A stretch of DNA of 64,000 nucleotides from a virus. Under the pieces are notes generated by a model that saw nothing but the letters and a program-made list of their open reading frames with translations, did not search any database and had not been told where the DNA came from. Position 1 is the first letter of the stretch; each line of letters opens with the position of its first letter. This document shows positions 1 to 64,000 of the stretch, one piece after another. The position numbers and the translations under genes were made by a program. The stretch is taken from IMG/VR virus record IMGVR_UViG_3300014202_001519; one strand, 5' to 3'.

Positions 1-103
1 ATTCACACTCAGGTTTCAGGTCGGCAACGCCGTATACAACTTCTTCTGGCAGGACAACATTACCCCGCGACTTAGACATTTTTTCGTATGCAGGTTGCGT
101 CAT
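1..103 (-). CDS. 5' part of an ORF with a class I aminoacyl-tRNA synthetase KMSKS motif (runs off the window)
   Basis: Manual translation from ATG at 103: MTQPAYEKMSKSRGNVVLPEEVVYGVADLKPECE. The frame is open upstream to an in-frame TAG at 173-175, so the start is uncertain. Confidence 0.45.
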   Translation of the reverse strand, partial: MTQPAYEKMSKSRGNVVLPEEVVYGVADLKPECE

Positions 104-194
104 AAAAGTAAGCGGCAGGGGTGTACGTTGCCATTCGCTGTTGCGCAAGGATAAGACGTTACCCTTATCATCCTACTGGCTAAAAGACAGCCGC

Positions 195-3982: not shown

Positions 3983-3993
3983 AGCAGACTCCT

Positions 3994-4098
3994 GCAATTT
4001 CGCAGCAACACCCAACATGAGCTTTGCCGCAACTTCACAACAAAACACAAGCGACTTTACAGCAACTCCCGCTATGAGCTTTGCTGTAACATCACAAC
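3994..4098 (-). repeat. two 48-nt imperfect direct repeats (57-nt period), each forming a hairpin
   Basis: 3994-4041 aligns with 4051-4098. Minus-strand stems TTACAGCAA/TTGCTGTAA and TTGCGGCAA/TTGCTGCGA share an internal AGCTCAT. Confidence 0.7.
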
Positions 4099-4169
4099 GC
4101 TCCCTGCGGGATTCGAACCCGCAACGCACAGTTTTAGAGACTGCCGCTCTGCCATTGAGCTAAGGGAGC
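4098..4169 (-). tRNA. tRNA with CTA anticodon (amber suppressor)
   Basis: GCTCCCT-TA-GCTC AATGGCA GAGC-G-GCAGT CTCTAAA ACTGT-GCGTT-GCGGG TTCGAAT CCCGC-AGGGAGC-G: full cloverleaf, G73, no encoded CCA. Confidence 0.92.
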
Positions 4170-4175
4170 ATACCT

Positions 4176-4394
4176 CTATCGAATGCGTCGTGCAATACGA
4201 CCTTTGGTTAAGTCATAGGGTGAAATTTCAACTTCCACCCGATCACCAGGAATAACCTTGATGAAATTCTTCCGCATCTTACCAGATATATGAGCTATAA
4301 TCGTATGTCCATTATCTAGTTGAACCCTGAATTGGGTATTAGCCAGGGCTTCGAGAACTTTACCTTCACACTCAATTGTTTCTGTTTTCGCCAT
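4176..4394 (-). CDS. infA: translation initiation factor IF-1
   Basis: [61 protein letters not shown]. Confidence 0.97.
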
Positions 4395-6197: not shown

Positions 6198-7211
6198 CTA
6201 CAAAGTTTCACTTTGTAAAATCTCCCGCGAGAATTTCTCTACAAACAAATCAGCCAATTTAACAATGTCATCCTTCCTGTCTAATTCATCTTTAAGATGA
6301 GCAGGGAAGATTTCTTCGCCTCCTAATGCCCCTAATAAACCCCCAACTAAAGAAGCATTCGTGTCCGCATCACCGCCAACATAAGCGGCATCTATCATAC
6401 TCTGAATTTTAAACGGACTACGAATGAAAAAGGCATAAGAAATTGGTAGTGAGTTATAAACGTAGCAAGAGCCGCCGCCATACTCATTTACCAGATGCTG
6501 GTCATCATACAATAGTTTTGGGTTCTCGTATAATGGCAAAAGACCTTTAAGCCTGTCGGTCAGGTCATCTTTAATGGTTTCTGAGTAATAGCTACGACCT
6601 ACTTCACTTGCACGAATCAATTTTCGCAGAAATACCTTGGTGTCGAAGGTTTGTGGGGTCTTGCTTAGGCAGTCTAGTAAGGCGATTGTGTGAGCAAGAC
6701 AGGAACTTATCGCTATGCTAGTTTGATGGGTCATCGCGGTGAAATCAACCAGATTCTTTGTAAATCCAGTCAGATTTCCAGTTAAACCAAAATAGGCAGC
6801 AAGGGGCGATGCCTTCATGGGTACGCCATTGCCCAAGCCCCGCCGTTCATTTCCTTGGAAATCGCCAGACTCTTTCCAGCTAATCCCTTCCTTAAGTCTC
6901 TTACATGCTTCCCTAGTGGTTGATCCCCAACCACTAACTGTATCATCATAGGCAGCAATATGCTCTATAGCAACATGCCCCATATCAAATTCGCCAGCAC
7001 CTAGAATTGCTTTGGCTGTTGCAATAGTTAATTGGGTGTCGTCGGTCCAGCTTCCTTTCTTTTTCCAACGCCCACTTCTATAGTTTTCTCGTTTTTTTAC
7101 TTTTTTCACCACATCGTATGGCTTAGATTCGAAGGGCATTCCTAGTGCATCCCCAATTGCAACACCTAAGAACATCCCCCTAACCTTATCTTTGACATTC
7201 ATGTGTGGCAT
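6198..7211 (-). CDS. ADP-ribosylglycohydrolase (ARH/DraG family)
   Basis: GVAIGDALGMPFE, WTDDTQLT, GNGVPMKASP and GGDADTNASLVG. Confidence 0.93.
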   Translation of the reverse strand: MPHMNVKDKVRGMFLGVAIGDALGMPFESKPYDVVKKVKKRENYRSGRWKKKGSWTDDTQLTIATAKAILGAGEFDMGHVAIEHIAAYDDTVSGWGSTTREACKRLKEGISWKESGDFQGNERRGLGNGVPMKASPLAAYFGLTGNLTGFTKNLVDFTAMTHQTSIAISSCLAHTIALLDCLSKTPQTFDTKVFLRKLIRASEVGRSYYSETIKDDLTDRLKGLLPLYENPKLLYDDQHLVNEYGGGSCYVYNSLPISYAFFIRSPFKIQSMIDAAYVGGDADTNASLVGGLLGALGGEEIFPAHLKDELDRKDDIVKLADLFVEKFSREILQSETL

Positions 7212-9848: not shown

Positions 9849-10970
9849 CTATTCTTCATCCCTGAGTCTCATAAAATACGGAAAACGCGGCTTACCATCA
9901 GGCGTATAGTTAAAGAATTTGATTGTCCCAACCTTTCCAATATAATCGTCCTTTTTCAAGAGCAGTTCCTTACAGAACTCACGGGTGCCCTTGATATTGG
10001 AATCAAACGTGGTCTTGCCGTCAAGGAACGCCGTGCCGTCCAGCTTCTTACAGACGACGTTGCCAGCACCGCCACTGCGGTTGCCAACACCTTCATTAAC
10101 CCCTACGATGAGGTATTCAGCATCCATGAACTCTTTATACTTGAGCAAATTCTTAGTTCGCTTTTGCTCATACTTGGAATCAATACGAACCATCAGCCCT
10201 TCATAGCCATCTTCTACGAAACTTTCGTAGTGGACAACCACTTCCTTTTCTTCCTTGACTTCATGTGTAGCAACGAGTTGTAGTGCAGGATGGCCCTTGG
10301 CAAAATGGAGAACCTTTTTCAATTCTCCAAAGCGTTCGCTGAATTTGCCGTCCCAAAACGGGAAGTCGTAAATATGATATTCGATGGATTTCGCCGCTTC
10401 AAGTAAATCTTCCTTCGTTGGTTTGCTTTTCTTTGCCAGCGAACAGATTTTATTGAAATCGTTGGCGAACTTATCCGCATACACTTCACCGTCGAAAATG
10501 TACTTCGGATTGTATTTGAACAGCGGGGCCAATGCCTCATAAATATGAGGAATTGACTTATATTCCTTGCCGTTGCGAGTCCACAACCCATCTTTATTAG
10601 CAATGAGCCTCAACCCGTCCAACTTCGGCTGGACGAAGAGTGGATACATTACCTCGTCCTTATAATCTTGCCAAACTTTAGCAAGCATGGGTTCGAAGAA
10701 AGAAGCATTATCAACATCGTTGATATCTGCTTTATAGCCCTTATCCACCTTCTTCTGCCATTCGGCCTTAGCTTCAGCCATCGCTTGTTGGGCAGCGCTA
10801 GTTTCATTCGCTCGCCCAATGTTCTTTCCACCGCAGACCGTCCATTCGGCAGTAACGATTTCGCCGTTCATAATGCCAGATAGGGACCGATGCTTATTGC
10901 CATCGACTTCTTTTTCCCAAATTTGAATTTTGCCGTCTGAACGCCGCGAATATAAAGGCGGAAGCTTCAT
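9849..10970 (-). CDS. ATP-dependent DNA ligase
   Basis: EPMLA, QPKLDGLR (motif I), DGEVY, EGYEGLMVR, LLKYK and PRFP; OB domain present. Confidence 0.93.
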   Translation of the reverse strand: MKLPPLYSRRSDGKIQIWEKEVDGNKHRSLSGIMNGEIVTAEWTVCGGKNIGRANETSAAQQAMAEAKAEWQKKVDKGYKADINDVDNASFFEPMLAKVWQDYKDEVMYPLFVQPKLDGLRLIANKDGLWTRNGKEYKSIPHIYEALAPLFKYNPKYIFDGEVYADKFANDFNKICSLAKKSKPTKEDLLEAAKSIEYHIYDFPFWDGKFSERFGELKKVLHFAKGHPALQLVATHEVKEEKEVVVHYESFVEDGYEGLMVRIDSKYEQKRTKNLLKYKEFMDAEYLIVGVNEGVGNRSGGAGNVVCKKLDGTAFLDGKTTFDSNIKGTREFCKELLLKKDDYIGKVGTIKFFNYTPDGKPRFPYFMRLRDEE

Positions 10971-11966: not shown

Positions 11967-12134
11967 TCAAAGATCAAAACTGGAGGCTTTAAGTCGCTCC
12001 AGAATTTGTTCCGCCTCTTCTTCACCCATGATACCAATAAGATTCATAAGAACGTCATCGGCATCCCCGCTACTCTTGCCTTCTTTGAAGAGGTTCTTAT
12101 ACTCTTCAAAGAAGGCAATTAGTTTTTCTTTCAT
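11967..12134 (-). CDS. hypothetical protein
   Basis: ATGA overlap with the PARP stop; MKEKLIAFF. Confidence 0.5.
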   Translation of the reverse strand: MKEKLIAFFEEYKNLFKEGKSSGDADDVLMNLIGIMGEEEAEQILERLKASSFDL

Positions 12135-13741
12135 GCTGCAAACTCCACCAAGTAACGCAACTGGTTTTGCTTGCCGTCGTAGATGATCCACTCATTGTTG
12201 ACCACGCCAGACTTGCCCGCCTTGCCGTAGACACAATGATGACCCTTCGGTGCCGACGTATAACCGCCGCACCCTGGAGCAACCCAAGGATTGCCCAAGA
12301 CAACATCGCACGCGAACATGAAAGCATCACGGCCACGAACCCCACCGTCACCAGCGGAGTAATAACCGCCGCGAAGACTGGTATAACCAGCCGACTTGCG
12401 CCAATCATCAGCGAAGTAACAGCCAGGGCCGAACATAGCGCCTGTAATCACTACGCCGACTAGCTGCTTGGGCAAACGAAGCCCTTCTCGCAAGATACCA
12501 GTAACATTAACGCTACGAGTACCGTGGAAAAGCAGAGCCGTATTCGTATCATGATAACGCTTAATCAAATCATTATCTTCAACATCCTGCCGTTCCTTTG
12601 GCTGGAATGGCGCACGTTCAGTAATACGGCATTTCTCTTTGAGAACCATATCCTGAGCGCCACTGACCTTATTTTGGTCCCCGTGGCGAGCGACCTTCCA
12701 CATGTTCTTAATCTTCATTTCGCCAACGCCATAATGACGATTGGCGGAAGCCTTTGGCCACCAATTGTATAGGAACTTACCAGTGGCCGAAGTTGGGTCG
12801 ATCCATTCCATTGCCAAAGGCATACCCTGGAATGGATCATTAACTTTATCATCCTTGACAGTATCATCATGCACATAAAGAGCCGCCTCGAACGCATCCA
12901 AGTCAGCGTTCCATAGCATGATGTTATTCTTGTTCAGAATCCAATCTTCGGCAGCACAGTGTAGAGCCTTCTTCTTTGGAATACGCGAATACATAACTCG
13001 CGTAAGCTGAACAAGCTCATTATCAGCAGCTTGCTTATCAACGCTGTCACCAACCTTAATAAGACGCTTCTGTGCTTCTTGAAGGATTTGACGACCTTCT
13101 TCGATTGACTTTTGGGTAGGCAACGAAGAGTCAGCCATCGCACCACGGGCATAAGACACCGTAGCGACGTTCAAATCCTTCATGAGACGCATGGTATGCG
13201 TATCAATAGAAGGCTTCCTGACAATGACTGATGGTGCGTCACCTTTAACTGCTGGTGCAGCGGGAGCCTTAGTGACCTTGGCCCCTTCATTCAACTTAAT
13301 CGTTTTGCCATCGGGCAGGCCAGTTGAACGGGTAGCCATAGGACGGACCAAATAACAATCCTTATTTGGCTTTGCGGTCAAAGTCTTAATGCCAGCGATG
13401 GTGGTCCACATGCCACGCTTATCGTTCTTGTCATGCAGTTGGTCAGCAAACTCCTGTTGAGCATCGCTTTCACCACTGCATTCTACGAATTGGAATTGGG
13501 GTGAAGTGGCACCAGTACGGCCCCACTCAAAATATGTATACCACTTCTTAGTCTTCCTATGCTGGACCACAGCGCCGTGGTAATATTTATTGCTGTCTTT
13601 ACCCGACTGATCGAAACAGCCAAGGTCAGCAATCTTACACTTATCAAACTGACCGTCTTCGGTAGCTGGCGGTCCAAAACACTGAAAATCGTCAGGACCA
13701 GAACCAGTTGGAAATTCGCTCTTACCTAGTTTAACGCCCAT
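12131..13741 (-). CDS. WGR-domain poly(ADP-ribose) polymerase (PARP)-like protein
   Basis: WGR (YFEWGRTG), helical regulatory region (YSRIP) and catalytic LLFHGT, GAMFGPGCYFAD, SAGY and NNEWIIY (H-Y-E triad). Confidence 0.9.
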   Translation of the reverse strand: MGVKLGKSEFPTGSGPDDFQCFGPPATEDGQFDKCKIADLGCFDQSGKDSNKYYHGAVVQHRKTKKWYTYFEWGRTGATSPQFQFVECSGESDAQQEFADQLHDKNDKRGMWTTIAGIKTLTAKPNKDCYLVRPMATRSTGLPDGKTIKLNEGAKVTKAPAAPAVKGDAPSVIVRKPSIDTHTMRLMKDLNVATVSYARGAMADSSLPTQKSIEEGRQILQEAQKRLIKVGDSVDKQAADNELVQLTRVMYSRIPKKKALHCAAEDWILNKNNIMLWNADLDAFEAALYVHDDTVKDDKVNDPFQGMPLAMEWIDPTSATGKFLYNWWPKASANRHYGVGEMKIKNMWKVARHGDQNKVSGAQDMVLKEKCRITERAPFQPKERQDVEDNDLIKRYHDTNTALLFHGTRSVNVTGILREGLRLPKQLVGVVITGAMFGPGCYFADDWRKSAGYTSLRGGYYSAGDGGVRGRDAFMFACDVVLGNPWVAPGCGGYTSAPKGHHCVYGKAGKSGVVNNEWIIYDGKQNQLRYLVEFAA

Positions 13742-36006: not shown

Positions 36007-36689
36007 AGCCTCTTATCCATGTTAAACTTATGCCACGCTCTTGTATCCCCGCGATTTAAACCGCAAAAATGACAGCCGTGGGTAAAATCTGGTAAAATCC
36101 CGTCCCTTTTGCATATGGCTATTTCCGTGGTAAAAATACAAATTTTTTCACCATTAAACCTTGAGAAAATAGCCGCTACTAATCCTTGTTCATCAAAGTA
36201 ATCATTCCAGGGTTTAATCGCCGCTTCAATTTTTGTTTTAAAATCGAAGTTGGGCGGGATTCCGATGATACCACTGTTGAGAAATTTACGCAGAGAGACA
36301 TGATATTTATAATTACCATAAAGTCCAAATAAGCCCTCCGTATAAATAACTGAGTTAGACGATAAAAACTGATTGATTTTATCTAATTTTTTGAACAAAA
36401 TCAAATCATTGTCAATAAAAAGTTCGTGTGATTCTATTCTTAGTCTTGGAGGGTAGAGTTTCCACGCCACTCCACTTGGCGGGTAAGATAAACTAGCTGG
36501 GTCTTGTTCTATAAAGATTACGTCATACTTCTCCAAATAATTTAATTCTTTTCGCTGGATCGAATTATAGCAAACGAAATAATCGAAAGTATCTCCGTAT
36601 AAATTTTTAATTAACTTGATAGACAAATCTAAGCTTTTGTGCCCGTATTGGTGAACTCTGCCGACAGTCCAACGAATAAGTGGTTTCAT
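36003..36689 (-). CDS. putative glycosyltransferase
   Basis: LFIDNDL, LNSGIIG and DEQGL. Confidence 0.55.
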   Translation of the reverse strand: MKPLIRWTVGRVHQYGHKSLDLSIKLIKNLYGDTFDYFVCYNSIQRKELNYLEKYDVIFIEQDPASLSYPPSGVAWKLYPPRLRIESHELFIDNDLILFKKLDKINQFLSSNSVIYTEGLFGLYGNYKYHVSLRKFLNSGIIGIPPNFDFKTKIEAAIKPWNDYFDEQGLVAAIFSRFNGEKICIFTTEIAICKRDGILPDFTHGCHFCGLNRGDTRAWHKFNMDKRL

Positions 36690-40383: not shown

Positions 40384-40815
40384 TTAACTTGAATAAATCC
40401 CTCGCACTTTATTCAAAATATCCTGAAAGACAGGGTTATTAAACTCGGTCTTATCCTTCTTTGGGGCGTGGACCTTTCTATGGCAGTTGGCGCATAAAAC
40501 AGCACATTTTAGCATTTCATCAATTATTTCAGAAATATTCATGTTACGGTTGCACATCGCTGCAACCGTAAGTCTTTTCTCATTAAGGTGGTGAAACTCC
40601 AGACAATCAGGATCACGCTCAGGACATTTAGCACATCCAAACATCGACTTCAATTCATCTACAAGCTTTTTAATGTCCTTTTTTCTTTTCTGTCTATTAC
40701 GGACATACTGCGGGTCTTTGTCCGCTCTCATGCGGTAATAAGCCCTAGCGCGAGAGTTAACTTTATCTCTATTCAATTTATTATAACTTTGTTGATATTC
40801 TTTATTATAATTCAT
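40384..40815 (-). CDS. HNH endonuclease
   Basis: CAKC...LEFHH...KCAVLCANCHRKVH. Confidence 0.8.
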   Translation of the reverse strand: MNYNKEYQQSYNKLNRDKVNSRARAYYRMRADKDPQYVRNRQKRKKDIKKLVDELKSMFGCAKCPERDPDCLEFHHLNEKRLTVAAMCNRNMNISEIIDEMLKCAVLCANCHRKVHAPKKDKTEFNNPVFQDILNKVRGIYSS

Positions 40816-41725
40816 ACCTTCTCATGACCTCTTTTATTTCAGCAAGAGCATTTTTATGTTTATCTGGTATCTCAACACAGCCCTTGAGCGATCCGTAATG
40901 ATAGTCAAGGCATTCCAGCAACAGCTTCTTAATCTCTTCCTTGCGAGGCTTTGCTGGAAGTTCACATTTACTGTAAAGAGCTTCTAGTTGCCTTTCCTTA
41001 TCCGAGGCCCACTTACGAATTTCAGCTTCGGGCATTTCGCCACGGCGAATAGCCTTTAGCTGCTCATTATTAAGCCGCAAATCCATTGAACCAGTGGTCA
41101 GGATTTGTTCGCATTCATTGAGAAGGCGAACAAGATGGTATCCGAATTTAACATCGAACCCAAACTCCTCCCGAATCTTTTTACGCTTACCAGTGGGCTT
41201 CTTGCTAGTCATCTTATGAAGCTGACTGTAAGCGTAATTTTTGAAGTTGGCATAGCAACCCTTGTGTAAGAAAACTTCCCTATTTTCTCTTACAAGATTA
41301 CCAACATAGGTCGAATGCAATACACACTCCTGCGGAGTGTAAATGCTGTCAATAATGTTGGGGTTATTGTCAATCAAAAGGTCGAAGTATCTCACGATAT
41401 TAAAGATCGTGAAGTCATACTCGCGGCCCTTGCCACCTAGCGCACTCTCATCGACAACGCCGTGCTGCTGCCACTGTGCGAAAATCTCTGGTTCGTCACC
41501 AAAACCAACCTTGAACTCATGCTTCACAGGCACAAAGATTACGCCGCCTAAATGGGGAAACACTGTTTCCTTCTTAGGGATGGCAAAACCGTAAATGTCC
41601 ATGTCACTTGTATCACTGGACACGCCGTAAGCCACACTACCCATAATAGTTAGGTAATGAGTGTTGGTTGGCAACCAGTCTGGCGGTTTAATGAGTTGTT
41701 TGTCTACTAAGTCTTGAAGGATCAT
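40805..41725 (-). CDS. DNA polymerase beta-superfamily nucleotidyltransferase
   Basis: GSVAYG.S..TSDMDIYG, NPNIID, YAYSQ and KFGYHLVRLL. Confidence 0.82.
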   Translation of the reverse strand: MILQDLVDKQLIKPPDWLPTNTHYLTIMGSVAYGVSSDTSDMDIYGFAIPKKETVFPHLGGVIFVPVKHEFKVGFGDEPEIFAQWQQHGVVDESALGGKGREYDFTIFNIVRYFDLLIDNNPNIIDSIYTPQECVLHSTYVGNLVRENREVFLHKGCYANFKNYAYSQLHKMTSKKPTGKRKKIREEFGFDVKFGYHLVRLLNECEQILTTGSMDLRLNNEQLKAIRRGEMPEAEIRKWASDKERQLEALYSKCELPAKPRKEEIKKLLLECLDYHYGSLKGCVEIPDKHKNALAEIKEVMRRYEL

Positions 41726-41737
41726 ATATCCTCCTTT

Positions 41738-42565
41738 CTACATGCATTCTTGCCTGAATTTGGCCCCTGTCATGATGGGCCGATAGAACATAGACGCAGT
41801 TTCATGGACACGCTTCAATAAATTCATGTTCGTGGCCAATTGTTTCCTGTCTAAATCAAAATAGATGTTATCTTCCAGCCCAATCCTGACGCCACCACCC
41901 ATTGCGATTGCAGCGGTTGTAACTGGTAACTGAGCGTCACCAATGCCACCAAAGGCCCATGTACTACGTTCTGGAAGCTGTTTAATGGCAATGCCCATCT
42001 CAGCTAGATCGGCTTGCATTCCAAAGACATTACCAAAGATCAGATTGAAGTAATAGGGGAATTTAACCAATCCCTTATTCATCAGATATTTGGCTCCATT
42101 AATCATGCCCAAATCGAAAACCTCAAGCTCTGGCATGACCTTATATTCTTGCATTTTCTTTGCCAGCTTGAGTATCATTTCAGGGGCATTCATACTGGCT
42201 TCTCTGGCAAAGTTTAGGCTACTAAGCGTCAAGGAAGCCATATCTGGCTTCAATTCTATGGGTTCAGAGCGTTTCTCAAATTCAGGAGACTTGCGACCGC
42301 TTAATGACAAGCAGATAATCAAATCTGGACAATACCGCCTTACCCCATCGTATATTTTGAAATATACGTTCTTGTCGGATGTAGGCGCACCTTCATCGTC
42401 ACGGGCATGTAAATGCGCAATGGTGATTCCATATTCATATGCCTGATGCACTTCCTCGATAATCTCGGTAGGCGAAATCGGCACATGCGGAGTCATTACC
42501 TTGGTCGGCACCATCCCCGTTGGTGTAAAATTGACGATTAACTCTTTCAAGACACCAGCCCTCAA
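41738..42565 (-). CDS. beta-keto acid cleavage enzyme (BKACE/Kce, DUF849)
   Basis: PTG, VPISPTEI, AHLHARD, PDMASL, ELEVFDLG and GGGVRIGLEDN. Confidence 0.9.
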   Translation of the reverse strand: MRAGVLKELIVNFTPTGMVPTKVMTPHVPISPTEIIEEVHQAYEYGITIAHLHARDDEGAPTSDKNVYFKIYDGVRRYCPDLIICLSLSGRKSPEFEKRSEPIELKPDMASLTLSSLNFAREASMNAPEMILKLAKKMQEYKVMPELEVFDLGMINGAKYLMNKGLVKFPYYFNLIFGNVFGMQADLAEMGIAIKQLPERSTWAFGGIGDAQLPVTTAAIAMGGGVRIGLEDNIYFDLDRKQLATNMNLLKRVHETASMFYRPIMTGAKFRQECM

Positions 42566-53194: not shown

Positions 53195-53266
53195 TGGGCC
53201 TGCCTGGATTCGAACCAGGAACCAAGGTTTTATGAGAACCCTGCTCTGCCGTTGAGCTACAGGCCC
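53195..53266 (-). tRNA. tRNA(CAT), probably Ile2 (lysidine-modified)
   Basis: GGGCCTG-TA-GCTC AACGGCA GAGC-A-GGGTT CTCATAA AACCT-TGGTT-CCTGG TTCGAAT CCAGG-CAGGCCC-A; C4:G69 and C5:G68 match TilS determinants. Confidence 0.88.
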
Positions 53267-59910: not shown

Positions 59911-60639
59911 TTAAGAATATTTAAAGGTTTCTTTTACACTGACACAGGTTTTTAGGTAAGTGTCAATACTTTCCCCTGCGTCACCCCAATAACCAGTTAT
60001 CTTATTAGCCTTAAGCTTACCTGCTCGTAAATAGATGTTGTTTAAATCTGTGATTTCTAATTCATTACGCTTGGAAGGCTTCAATCCCTTGAGCTTCTTC
60101 CAAACGCTAGAGTCATACATATAAAGCCCAATAGCCACCCAATTAGACTTGGGTTTCTTAGGCTTCTCAATAATCTCTTTAACACTATCGCCATCCAAAG
60201 TAACTACTCCATACCACTCTGGATGGTCGTTTTGGGTTACAAATATCCTAGCACCCACTGGATTATTATTAAACTCTTCCACAGCATCACAGAAAGAATG
60301 CTGAAGGATGTTATCCCCCAACATCACGCAGATACTATCCCCATCAGCCCAAGACTCAGCCAGAGCCAACGCATGAGCAATACCGCCAGCTTCCTTCTGA
60401 TAAGTGTAGGCAATATGCTTTAAGCCAAACTCTTCGCCATTGCCTAGAATACGCAGGAAGTCACCTGGATTCTGCCCACCACAAACCAAAAGAATGTCTG
60501 TGATCCCACTATCCACCATGCTTTGGATAGGGTAGTAGATCATCGGCTTGTTATAAACTGGTAGTAAATGCTTATTAACAACATTCGTTAACGGGCGAAG
60601 TCTCGTCCCATTACCACCAGCAAGGATAATTCCACGCAT
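59911..60639 (-). CDS. rfbA: glucose-1-phosphate thymidylyltransferase
   Basis: GIILAGGNGTRLRPLT, KHLLPVYNKPMIYYP, LGDNI, EKP and ELEITD. Confidence 0.92.
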   Translation of the reverse strand: MRGIILAGGNGTRLRPLTNVVNKHLLPVYNKPMIYYPIQSMVDSGITDILLVCGGQNPGDFLRILGNGEEFGLKHIAYTYQKEAGGIAHALALAESWADGDSICVMLGDNILQHSFCDAVEEFNNNPVGARIFVTQNDHPEWYGVVTLDGDSVKEIIEKPKKPKSNWVAIGLYMYDSSVWKKLKGLKPSKRNELEITDLNNIYLRAGKLKANKITGYWGDAGESIDTYLKTCVSVKETFKYS

Positions 60640-62010: not shown

Positions 62011-62454
62011 GTGATGGAAAATTTCAAGAATTATATTGAGGATAGGGAAAAGGGCACTGAGTCGTCATCCACCGCAAAAGAAGCGCTCAGAGAAATCCAA
62101 ATCGTCATGAATGCAGGAATTGGTAAAACTACCAAGGTTAATGGCTTTGGCATTAATAGCATTGAGTTCCATGTAATAAATCAGGAAGCAGCGGAATCTG
62201 GAACCCAGGTTAATTTAGAGGCTAAAGGCGAAGCTATCGCCAAAAATGAAAAGCATATTAGCCGCATGTTGCAAAAGCTGGTAACATCAACCAGAGAAGA
62301 CTTGTGGAAGAAAAAGATATTCTTGGAGATGATGTATCACAAGATCGACGTTTCTGAGACAAAACTAGAGTCAGAAGACGACGACGATCCAAACATCGGT
62401 CTAAAAAGAACACTATATTTCACAGTAATTTGTGCGGCATGTGTATTCAATTAA
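62011..62454 (+). CDS. hypothetical protein
   Basis: 147-aa ORF. Confidence 0.5.
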   Translation: MMENFKNYIEDREKGTESSSTAKEALREIQIVMNAGIGKTTKVNGFGINSIEFHVINQEAAESGTQVNLEAKGEAIAKNEKHISRMLQKLVTSTREDLWKKKIFLEMMYHKIDVSETKLESEDDDDPNIGLKRTLYFTVICAACVFN

Positions 62455-63253
62455 ATGGATGAAGTCTATCCTATTAACTGGCGGTGTCGGTGATGTGCTA
62501 GCAGTCGAATCCCTCATGACTGATGAGGAACGTAATGCGATCAATTGCATTTACTATGCAACAAGAGCATTCAAGCCTTGCGTGGAATTGTTTGAAAACC
62601 TGCCTAGTTTTCCAGAACTTAAAATGCAACCCATCCTCTGGAAAGACTTCTCAAAAATATTTTGCTTCCATGATAAAGAACAACTAGCGGATAAACTCTG
62701 TGCCTATCAGCCAAACGCTCTCCAACAATTAGCCAGAAAGTTAATGGCTCCTATTGAAGATTATAGCATTAAAAAGATATTCGCTGAAGATAGGGCTTAT
62801 ACCTATTCTAGTTTTGTAAAAACAAATCTTGCTTCTCTCAAAAAATTTAATTTGCCAGCAGACTACTTTTGCATATGCCCTTATAGCAACAATGATAAAA
62901 GAGATTTAAGAAGGGACTATAGTTCGGCGGATTGGGGACAAACGCTGAATATATTGAAAAGAAGGGGCATGTACGGAGTTGTAATAAACATGGGGCAAGA
63001 AACAATCCCTCAAGACCCATATATTATTAATCTAAGCAACAAAACTAATATAAGAGAAGCTGTTGAAGTGGTAAAACAGGCTAAAGGTTACATTGGCATT
63101 GATACTGCTTTTTCGGTTATTGCTGCAAAAGTCTTTAATCCAGATGATATAATTATAAAATGTTTAAACGAGCATTGCTTTCGCTGGGCACCAGTATATT
63201 TTAAGCCATTAACCACATTTCAATTCTTAAAAGAAAAGATTATGGACCAGTAG
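62432..63253 (+). CDS. GT9 (heptosyltransferase)-like glycosyltransferase
   Basis: GGVGDVL, INLSNKTNIREA and YIGIDTAFS. Confidence 0.65.
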   Translation: MRHVYSIKWMKSILLTGGVGDVLAVESLMTDEERNAINCIYYATRAFKPCVELFENLPSFPELKMQPILWKDFSKIFCFHDKEQLADKLCAYQPNALQQLARKLMAPIEDYSIKKIFAEDRAYTYSSFVKTNLASLKKFNLPADYFCICPYSNNDKRDLRRDYSSADWGQTLNILKRRGMYGVVINMGQETIPQDPYIINLSNKTNIREAVEVVKQAKGYIGIDTAFSVIAAKVFNPDDIIIKCLNEHCFRWAPVYFKPLTTFQFLKEKIMDQ

Positions 63254-63403: not shown

Positions 63404-63628
63404 ATGAAAACAAACTTTAATGAATGGATTACCCAAAATAAAGAAGAAGAATTTAGTGCCCTATCAAGTCAAGGACTTGGAATGCGAACCCGCGAAGATG
63501 TAGACCTAATTGAAAGCCAATTAGATCAGTGGGTAAACAAACTAATGGGACTGCTCAACGCAGTCCCACAAGAGAGGAAACAGAAATTCTTAGAGAAGGT
63601 AATTAACAACATCAAAACTAGGCTTTAA
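63404..63628 (+). CDS. hypothetical protein
   Basis: 74-aa ORF. Confidence 0.45.
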   Translation: MKTNFNEWITQNKEEEFSALSSQGLGMRTREDVDLIESQLDQWVNKLMGLLNAVPQERKQKFLEKVINNIKTRL

Positions 63629-64000
63629 TTTCGTCACGGACCTCCATTAGAATCTTGCCAAGCCAGTTTTGGCCTTTACCCCTGCACACACCCCAAAAGG
63701 TGTCATTCCAGGTGTTAGTCTCTTCTAAGTGTGCGTCCCCTGTAGCTAAAAGTTTCTCTTTTAGCTCTTTGTGTTTGGAGAACTTTTGAAGGACTAAATC
63801 CTTCATCACACCGATTTTAATTTGTTCCCAATCTGGCCGTATCTTGACCTGTTTGCCAAGACGTTTCGCGTCAGCGGGTTTCTCTGACTCCTGAATCCTC
63901 AGTCTTTGCGCGGCATCCTCGGTCTTCGCCGCCTGATAAGCGTGTTCGGTCGAAGCGTATTCCATACCATCATATTCCACGGTTGCTAGTTGGAAATTGG
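63618..64000 (-). CDS. NADAR/YbiA-family protein (5' end beyond the window)
   Basis: NFQ...EHAYQAAK, AKRLGK, KFSKH.ELK..LLATG and WG...GQNWLGKILM. Confidence 0.93.
   Translation of the reverse strand, partial: NFQLATVEYDGMEYASTEHAYQAAKTEDAAQRLRIQESEKPADAKRLGKQVKIRPDWEQIKIGVMKDLVLQKFSKHKELKEKLLATGDAHLEETNTWNDTFWGVCRGKGQNWLGKILMEVRDEIKA

Follow-up and report, generated by a model that had tools for sequence, protein, structure and literature searches.

Phages that use genetic code 15, in which TAG encodes Gln, carry a tRNA(CUA) that allows them to translate genes with in-frame UAG in standard-code hosts, and a logic of timing or gating has been proposed for these crAss-like, Lak and other phages (Borges et al., bioRxiv 10.1101/2021.08.26.457843). 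In them, many late and lysis genes contain in-frame TAG, TAG stops are rare, the GC content is low and release factor 2 (RF2) is sometimes encoded. Here we describe a tRNA gene with the amber-reading anticodon CUA in the viral record IMGVR_UViG_3300014202_001519 of IMG/VR, of which a stretch of 64,000 nucleotides (the window) was analysed. Unlike in the code 15 phages, TAG makes up 16-22% of the stops in the window and in the relatives of this phage, and one clean in-frame TAG was found, in a single small gene of the PTH2 type. We propose, with a probability of about 0.6, that the window tRNA is a functional and selected amber suppressor of a huge phage with the standard code, dedicated to one PTH2-like gene that has an amber codon close to its start.

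The same kind of gene is known from jumbo phages with the standard code, where it has been called an 'orphan' suppressor (XacN1, GAP32, CBB, ME3, RsoM2USA, phage G with Sup-UUA, and Bxz1-like mycobacteriophages). The window tRNA is 75-85% identical, with the anticodon masked, to several of them. Unlike in the reports of suppressors without a target, a candidate target has now been found in GAP32, CBB, ME3 and RsoM2USA. Because the candidate sits ahead of the start that was called, it cannot be revealed by reading past annotated stops.

Three cellular systems are also instructive. In prfB, the gene for RF2, an early in-frame UGA likewise ties the output of a translation factor to stop recognition, but there a +1 frameshift provides the escape and the gene responds to its own product, whereas the PTH2 case would use a dedicated tRNA and its product is a hydrolase rather than the release factor. 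The bldA tRNA-Leu(UUA) of Streptomyces controls adpA via a single codon. It likewise gates one gene by a specialised tRNA, but its codon is a rare sense codon and the system is cellular; here the codon is a stop and both genes belong to the phage. The laboratory amber suppressor su7 of E. coli was derived from tRNA-Trp (CCA to CUA, with G73) and is charged largely with Gln. The phage tRNA likewise has G73, a body resembling tRNA-Trp and, probably, a CCA-to-CUA change behind it, but differs in its G1-C72 pair and its acceptor stem.

The tRNA-CUA gene of the window

The gene was recovered by both Rfam and ARAGORN:

4098..4169, minus strand: tRNA gene of the amber suppressor type, anticodon CUA, discriminator G73; Rfam RF00005 and ARAGORN

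The Rfam match covers the full model (1-71) with 68.5 bits (E = 8e-13; gathering score 29), and ARAGORN called the anticodon as cta. Read directly from the sequence, the molecule has an acceptor stem of 7 bp, U8, A14, G18G19, an anticodon stem of 5 bp, a variable loop of 5 nt and a canonical T loop, the T arm being GTTCGAATC. The anticodon loop of 7 nt is C-U-CUA-A-A, in which position 33 is U and position 37 a purine. All the features expected of an elongator-type tRNA (cloverleaf, U8, A14, G18G19, U33 and the T-loop GTTCRANYC) were found, while the CCA end is not encoded. The anticodon corresponds to TAG on the plus strand at window positions 4134-4136. The canonical cloverleaf, the CUA loop and G73 that an earlier note on this DNA had described are borne out by these results, as are its coordinates; the strand, which it had left unstated, is minus.

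ARAGORN labelled the gene as tRNA-Pyl because it considered the anticodon alone. tRNAPyl has a short D loop without G18G19, a variable loop of 3 nt and a lengthened anticodon stem, and it occurs together with pylS and pylBCD. The label was rejected on G18G19, the 5-nt variable loop and the 5-bp anticodon stem, an architecture found in ordinary elongator tRNAs; no search for pyl genes was made. No tRNA similar to it was found in E. coli genomes, and a scan for promoters and terminators around the gene gave background levels only. A second tRNA of the window, Met (CAT), is located at 53195-53266.

The phage and its two relatives

The window encodes IF-1, ClpX, WGR-PARP, an ADP-ribosylglycohydrolase, NADAR, an ATP-dependent ligase, a carbamoyltransferase and a glycan island, a set of genes characteristic of huge phages. 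Its closest record is LR756511.1, from an uncultured phage of 595 kb (ClpX 74% identical); the window is colinear with the stretch at ~177-231 kb in the coordinates of that record. The second relative is the 373-kb IMG/VR contig IMGVR_UViG_3300003310_000099, here called G002 (ClpX 74%). Together with a 210-kb contig from the same sample, L114 (IMGVR_UViG_3300003310_000098), G002 probably represents one genome of ~583 kb in two pieces, because the shorter contig holds genes that are absent from G002. If this holds, the CheckV completeness of 98% for G002 is misleading. We counted 63 tRNA genes in LR756511 and 58 in G002, and each has one CUA tRNA plus a separate Trp-CCA tRNA.

An early amber codon in a PTH2-like gene of the relatives

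The comparative screens for in-frame TAG were blind to a TAG within 20 codons of the start and to one that is present in both genomes compared, and in an initial tblastn search for homology running across TAGs, antisense frames dominated. The case described here was exposed by a screen for conserved open reading frames (ORFs) whose homology begins ahead of any start codon. This 'startless ORF' screen was itself noisy, with 24/173 hits for TAG, 30/222 for TGA and 27/356 for TAA. The gene has the same structure in both relatives:

LR756511, TAG at 171439-171441, minus strand: early-amber PTH2-like gene, opening with a Shine-Dalgarno (SD) sequence and ATG-NNN-CAC-TAG
G002, TAG at 175232-175234, strand of the tRNA-CUA gene: early-amber PTH2-like gene, opening with SD and ATG-NNN-CAC-TAG

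In both, AAGGAG is followed after 7 nt by ATG-NNN-CAC-TAG-GTY and then by an ORF of 106 aa, which is 66% identical between the two phages. In G002 this ORF contains not a single ATG, GTG or TTG. The gene is located 7.7-8.2 kb downstream of the tRNA-CUA gene on the same strand, and the order infA, tRNA-CUA, tRNA-Lys(UUU), amber-PTH2, all on one strand, is common to LR756511 and G002.

Several lines of evidence concern the identity of the product. Pfam PF01981 matched the relatives' protein with 28.7 bits (cutoff 23), the domain starting directly after the TAG, and a profile search of PDB sequences recovered PTH2 enzymes (E = 1.6e-6). The AlphaFold (AF2) model has a pLDDT of 92 and a pTM of 0.84, and the top 12 Foldseek matches were all PTH2 proteins with TM scores of 0.65-0.78, including archaeal Pth2 and human Bit1. 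As judged from profiles and predicted fold, the protein is a PTH2-type peptidyl-tRNA hydrolase.

A genome-wide screen for the same arrangement (SD and start, at most 6 codons, a stop, then a long ORF) turned up no further clean example; its controls with TAA and TGA gave junk frames only. Another gene of G002, near 60412, was considered as a leader-amber candidate and discarded, since LR756511 lacks a homolog of it. Next to PTH2 in LR756511 and G002 we saw no HD gene that opens with a leader amber.

Occurrence of the pair in other large phages

The early amber in the PTH2-like gene was found in 16 distinct lineages, i.e. LR756511, G002 and 14 more. Homologs from metagenomes and IMG/VR are 39-70% identical, and the leaders encoded before the TAG are MTH, MSH, MEH, MKDT, MTDT, MPFP, MT, MS, MAQ and ML. 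The gene opens as follows in named phages:

GAP32 and CBB: ATG GCA CAA TAG
RsoM2USA: ATG TTG TAG
ME3: ATG ACT TAG
LR756501 (735 kb, largest uncultured): ATG TCG TAG

For 10 of the 16 lineages a CUA tRNA is present in the same locus or record, at these distances from the PTH2-like gene:

LR756511 and G002: ~8 kb
L149: ~0.9 kb
L154: ~1.2 kb
L150/151: ~190 nt upstream
ME3: ~450 nt upstream
GAP32: 3 kb
CBB: 3.7 kb
RsoM2USA: 13 kb
LR756501: two copies at 2.4 kb

Five sequences lack the early amber, namely L157, L159, RaK2, XacN1 and Xoo-sp13. In XacN1 and Xoo-sp13 the PTH2 domain forms the C-terminal part of a 280-aa ORF without an amber. XacN1 has two tandem CUA tRNAs (36047-36205), located ~1 kb from its tmRNA gene. 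In RaK2 the lone match to a tRNA pattern in the whole genome was not recognised as a tRNA by ARAGORN.

The base following the leader TAG is a purine in 15/15 cases versus 160/311 (51%) of ordinary TAG stops, a difference whose p-value (7e-5) overstates, as do the lineage counts, the independence of lineages that are related to one another. A 3' purine favours amber suppression.

Because the true start precedes the TAG, the gene is truncated or missing in GenBank: GAP32_397 and CBB gp573 are called from an internal start, and the gene is unannotated in RsoM2USA and others. The locus lies near position 3985-4320 in our pieces of GAP32 (L161), CBB (L163) and RsoM2USA (L164). The authors of the XacN1 genome obtained no target by reading through all 18 amber stops (PMC5852040), and the RsoM2USA paper describes the target of its suppressor tRNA as not known and offers speculation only (PMC8504454). 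These annotations explain why reading on past amber stops yielded no target and why the latter paper only speculates. PTH2 is listed in jumbo phages by Iyer et al., where the stop codon is unmentioned (PMC7824862). In our literature search we found no published account of the pair of tRNA-CUA and early-amber PTH2, and no paper that combines 'suppressor tRNA' with 'Pth2'.

Conservation and origin of the tRNA

The syntenic tRNAs of LR756511 and G002, two separately assembled phages, also have the anticodon CUA. Pairs 4-7 of the acceptor stem show compensatory differences between the window and LR756511, with the pairing intact. As CUA was kept in the relatives despite changes in the stem, an assembly error in the anticodon, which the earlier note had named as what could undo its claim, is ruled out, and the tRNA is under selection. 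Nine phage CUA tRNAs were aligned (the window, LR756511, G002, two from contig L084, mycobacteriophage Cali, two from XacN1 and one from GAP32). Double compensatory changes were seen in 14 of 20 pairs while the loop CUCUAAA is invariant, which argues for a decoding function.

The search for viral tRNAs with the D and anticodon arms of the window tRNA, leaving the anticodon free, gave 14 sequences, of which nine were Trp-CCA, two CUA and three Gly. With the anticodon masked, the phage CUA tRNAs group at 75-85% identity. The nearest sense isotype is Trp (maximum 0.70-0.76, and the highest mean) and Gln scores low, in a comparison set that was partly chosen by similarity. The tRNA probably descends from tRNA-Trp via a C35-to-U change. 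This is the simplest account and not a proven one; the relatives' own tRNA-Trp genes are just 67-69% alike. Of the Gln and Trp identities that the earlier note had called compatible, Trp is far nearer than Gln, a resemblance that concerns the body and not the charging synthetase or the attached amino acid.

The tRNA-CUA gene of the window stands apart from the big tRNA arrays found in both relatives. Two observations on tRNA genes elsewhere may be added. The viral contig L084 (176 kb) has two different CUA tRNAs, at 1673-1745 and 1894-1966, 150 nt apart. Acidobacterial contigs from metagenome-assembled genomes of Pyrinomonadaceae and Blastocatellia (L034-L076) carry tRNA arrays of up to 32 genes per 8 kb, and these arrays are possibly mobile or of prophage origin.

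TAG as an ordinary stop codon

By a greedy ORF call the window has 102 genes, of which 45 end in TAA, 35 in TGA and 22 in TAG. Its coding density is 93.5% with table 11 and 92.0% with TAG as sense, and it drops when any stop codon is read as sense. The densities under code 11 and code 15 are 0.909 and 0.907 in LR756511 and 0.903 and 0.905 in G002, so the comparison, run on the window and both relatives, gave no clear rise with TAG as sense. None of the 20-kb bins of LR756511 or G002 resembles a recoded block. TAG accounts for 22% of stops in the window, 19% in LR756511 and 16% in G002 and is not depleted, and the GC content of the relatives, ~42%, is not low. Besides infA, two window genes illustrate the use of TAG as a terminator:

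6198-7211: ARH, TAG stop, full-length Pfam match
9849-10970: ATP-dependent DNA ligase, TAG stop, full-length Pfam match

The full-length Pfam matches agree with the earlier statement that infA, ARH and the DNA ligase end at TAG where their families end, and the densities and the frequency of TAG stops with its view that the genome is not recoded wholesale.

Further tests addressed read-through at individual genes. Extensions past TAG are as long as those past TAA and TGA. Among reciprocal ortholog pairs (68, 59 and 221 in the three comparisons), the identity of the stop is kept at 1.41x expectation for TAG and 1.37x for TGA, TAG stops interchange freely with TAA and TGA, and the first residues after a shared stop are 5% identical for TAG as well as for TAA. 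Orthologs that run uninterrupted across an in-frame TAG showed no excess over the TAA/TGA background: the 221 pairs contained, genome-wide, one weak case for TAG versus one or two for TAA and TGA, and this candidate in LR756511 (43820), being equalled by the background, was dropped. These tests of stop codons and extensions lead to the conclusion that TAG is an ordinary stop and that extended proteins are not under selection.

Two possible read-through fusions in the window, BKACE (41738-42565) with RlaP (40805-41725) and a GT9-like gene (62432-63253) with a small ORF (63404-63628), were rejected since each partner is complete with its own start. An ORF running off the left edge (2-172, minus strand), which has the class I synthetase-like motif KMSKSRGNVV 7 codons after its ATG, was considered as a synthetase interrupted by TAG; this too was rejected, as reading TAG as sense adds 21 codons, there is no Pfam match and LR756511 has no homolog.

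An intermediate state of stop-codon reassignment, which the earlier note had entertained, finds no support, with TAG at 16-22% of stops, no bin of either relative resembling a recoded one and TAG exchanging freely with other stops. The note's idea of a conditional read-through of selected amber codons survives in a narrower form, for one PTH2-like gene, with structural and lysis genes uninvolved.

Neighbouring genes and other features

The tRNA gene of the window is flanked as follows:

4176..4394, minus strand: infA (translation initiation factor IF-1, 72 aa); Pfam eIF-1a, 92 bits
3994..4097, minus strand: tRNA trailer with two similar hairpins; minimum free energy -44.6 kcal/mol, z = -2.5 versus shuffles

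The order infA, then tRNA-CUA, is common to the window, G002 and LR756511, with gaps of 6 nt, 5 nt and ~340 nt, respectively, and the two genes are probably co-transcribed. In the same order, infA stops at TAG, TGA and TAA. We therefore rejected the amber stop of infA, 6 nt from the tRNA, as a functional signal; in the window it is a coincidence, as the orthologs use other stops. The trailer hairpins are a possible processing or termination signal, and one hairpin repeat core is partly kept in LR756511. A 630-nt contig from an independent run, ~95% alike, covers the tRNA and infA, and contigs of related phages in public runs, from sediment samples, are 85-95% alike to the window, with a share of at most 0.11.

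The block of the window that contains the tRNA also has NAD/ADP-ribose genes (the ARH above, WGR-PARP at 12131-13741 and NADAR at 63618-63980), together with the BKACE enzyme and the RlaP-type nucleotidyltransferase. LR756511 has a tmRNA gene at 341280-341632 (minus strand) with the tag ANPEFAMAA; neither G002 nor the window yielded one.

LR756511 also encodes a factor resembling release factor 1 (RF1) at 413855-414640, minus strand (L023:13855-14640). Domain 1 is missing, the PxT-like and GGQ motifs are present, and NCBIfam prfA scores 223 bits versus 153 for prfB and 77 for prfH. Homologs lie around position 2400-2560 in L112, L114, L117, L118 and L119. Ribosomes would enter the gene through a +1 frameshift of the prfB type at CTT TGA C, a site located at the same position in 5/6 homologs, in L119 as CTT TGA G; the exception is L117, with a plain SD and ATG. 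In LR756511 and L112 there is a second shift site upstream, CTT TAA C and CTT TAG C, giving two tandem +1 shifts. We considered whether the gene of LR756511 is amber-gated and rejected this, since the homologs keep the CTT-TGA-C site of +1 frameshifting and Leu-Asp codons account for the frame-0 TAG. We found no published description of a frameshifted RF1-like factor in huge phages.

Proposed function and alternative explanations

Under the proposed dedication to the PTH2-like gene, the ribosome would start at a normal SD and ATG, make two to four residues and reach UAG at codon 3-5. Without the phage tRNA, RF1 would free a tiny peptide at trivial cost; with the tRNA expressed and charged, translation would continue into the hydrolase. 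The output of the enzyme would track the competition between suppressor and RF1, and the arrangement would therefore act as a gate or gauge. Any residue inserted at UAG should be tolerated because the codon precedes the first strand of the domain, which fits a suppressor of uncertain identity. The hydrolase may clear peptidyl-tRNAs that arise from overridden termination, or act on the suppressor itself.

Several points weigh against this proposal. The PTH2-like gene is absent from the 64-kb window; from the spacing in the relatives it is expected ~4 kb beyond window position 1, so that the phage is presumed by synteny, not by sight, to carry it just past the left edge. For six of the 16 lineages only short contigs or 20-kb pieces were available, and these contain no CUA tRNA. 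XacN1 is an exception to the pairing, having two CUA tRNAs and an amber-free, fused PTH2, and cluster C mycobacteriophages have a similar CUA tRNA with no Mycobacterium phage among the PTH2-like matches. The relatedness of the lineages tempers both their number and the purine statistic. Strong suppression would be expected to carry a cost in a genome that ends 22% of its genes, infA included, in TAG, and the proposal does not explain this. Finally, all the evidence is computational, and expression, charging and suppression are predictions.

Some of the same points suit a tRNA that suppresses amber codons generally and at a low level, without a target of its own in this phage. It would extend a fraction of the proteins, host or phage, that stop at UAG, buffer amber nonsense mutations in a very large genome or disturb host translation. 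Genes with in-frame TAG are absent from the window, XacN1 keeps its two tRNAs without an amber PTH2 and its 18 read-throughs led to no target, and the cluster C phages retain a similar tRNA with no PTH2-like match among them. We nevertheless regard this as an unlikely account: no benefit from extensions is visible, as neither conservation of the peptides after TAG nor a preference for keeping TAG stops was seen, a dedicated target is present in both syntenic relatives, and a diffuse role is hard to reconcile with an amber gene that lies so close to the tRNA in many lineages. It is much harder to sustain that TAG is part-way to reassignment, or that the rest of the genome contains a recoded block, for example of late or lysis genes, such as crAss-like and Lak phages have. 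The window covers 64 kb, with the full genome probably measuring about 600 kb, and relatives of recoded phages that use the standard code and gain suppressors have been documented (Borges et al., bioRxiv 10.1101/2021.08.26.457843). However, the relatives (595 kb and 373 kb) have no recoded 20-kb bin and equal densities under codes 11 and 15, TAG makes up 19% and 16% of their stops at a GC of ~42%, and the 221 ortholog pairs show no excess of TAG; we see very little chance for this explanation.

Instead of decoding, the tRNA might serve as a primer or regulatory RNA or divert a host anticodon nuclease as a decoy; it might also be an uncharged relic. That no cognate aminoacyl-tRNA synthetase is evident, that LR756511 lacks class Ib and Ic synthetase genes, and that charging cannot be read from a sequence would suit such a view. 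It is improbable given that cloverleaf, tertiary contacts and anticodon loop are kept in nine divergent copies with covariation in 14/20 pairs, as selection for the decoding of UAG on the ribosome would predict, and that the tRNA is linked to a gene that needs UAG to be read. CUA and CCA are one base apart, and a sequencing or assembly error in a normal tRNA-Trp (CCA) could in principle produce the gene. Yet CUA occurs in two separately assembled syntenic phages and in seven further phage copies, and the relatives hold separate tRNA-Trp(CCA) genes elsewhere, which leaves the error a negligible probability.

The dedicated pairing can be taken further. The tRNA and PTH2 might together form a sensor of UAG decoding run by the phage, in which the amount of hydrolase made reports the ratio of suppressor to RF1 in the infected cell, the hydrolase acts on products of failed or overridden termination and read-through is under feed-forward or homeostatic control. 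The substrates of the enzyme would then be short peptidyl-tRNAs or the suppressor's own charged form, and in the lineage of LR756511 the sensor would work beside the RF1-like factor, with its prfB-type +1 sites at UAA/UAG and UGA. We put this forward as a speculation that is unlikely to be right.

Implications for large phages

Suppressor tRNAs have long been annotated in large phages with the standard code, and a linked UAG at codon 3-5 of a gene gives them a concrete purpose that can be tested, directly so in the several carriers that are cultured. The annotation of PTH2-like genes, truncated or missing in several GenBank records, is corrected at the same time. For the phage of the window, synteny assigns its tRNA to the amber-PTH2 family, with the target predicted in the unseen flank. 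The pair would amount to the suppressor-tRNA decoding of phages cut down to a single codon in a standard-code genome, and the sensor, if true, would be a small circuit of termination control in a standard-code virus. Recoding as minimal as this, confined to one codon of one gene where TAG otherwise remains a frequent stop, has a bearing on the way in which full recoding might begin.
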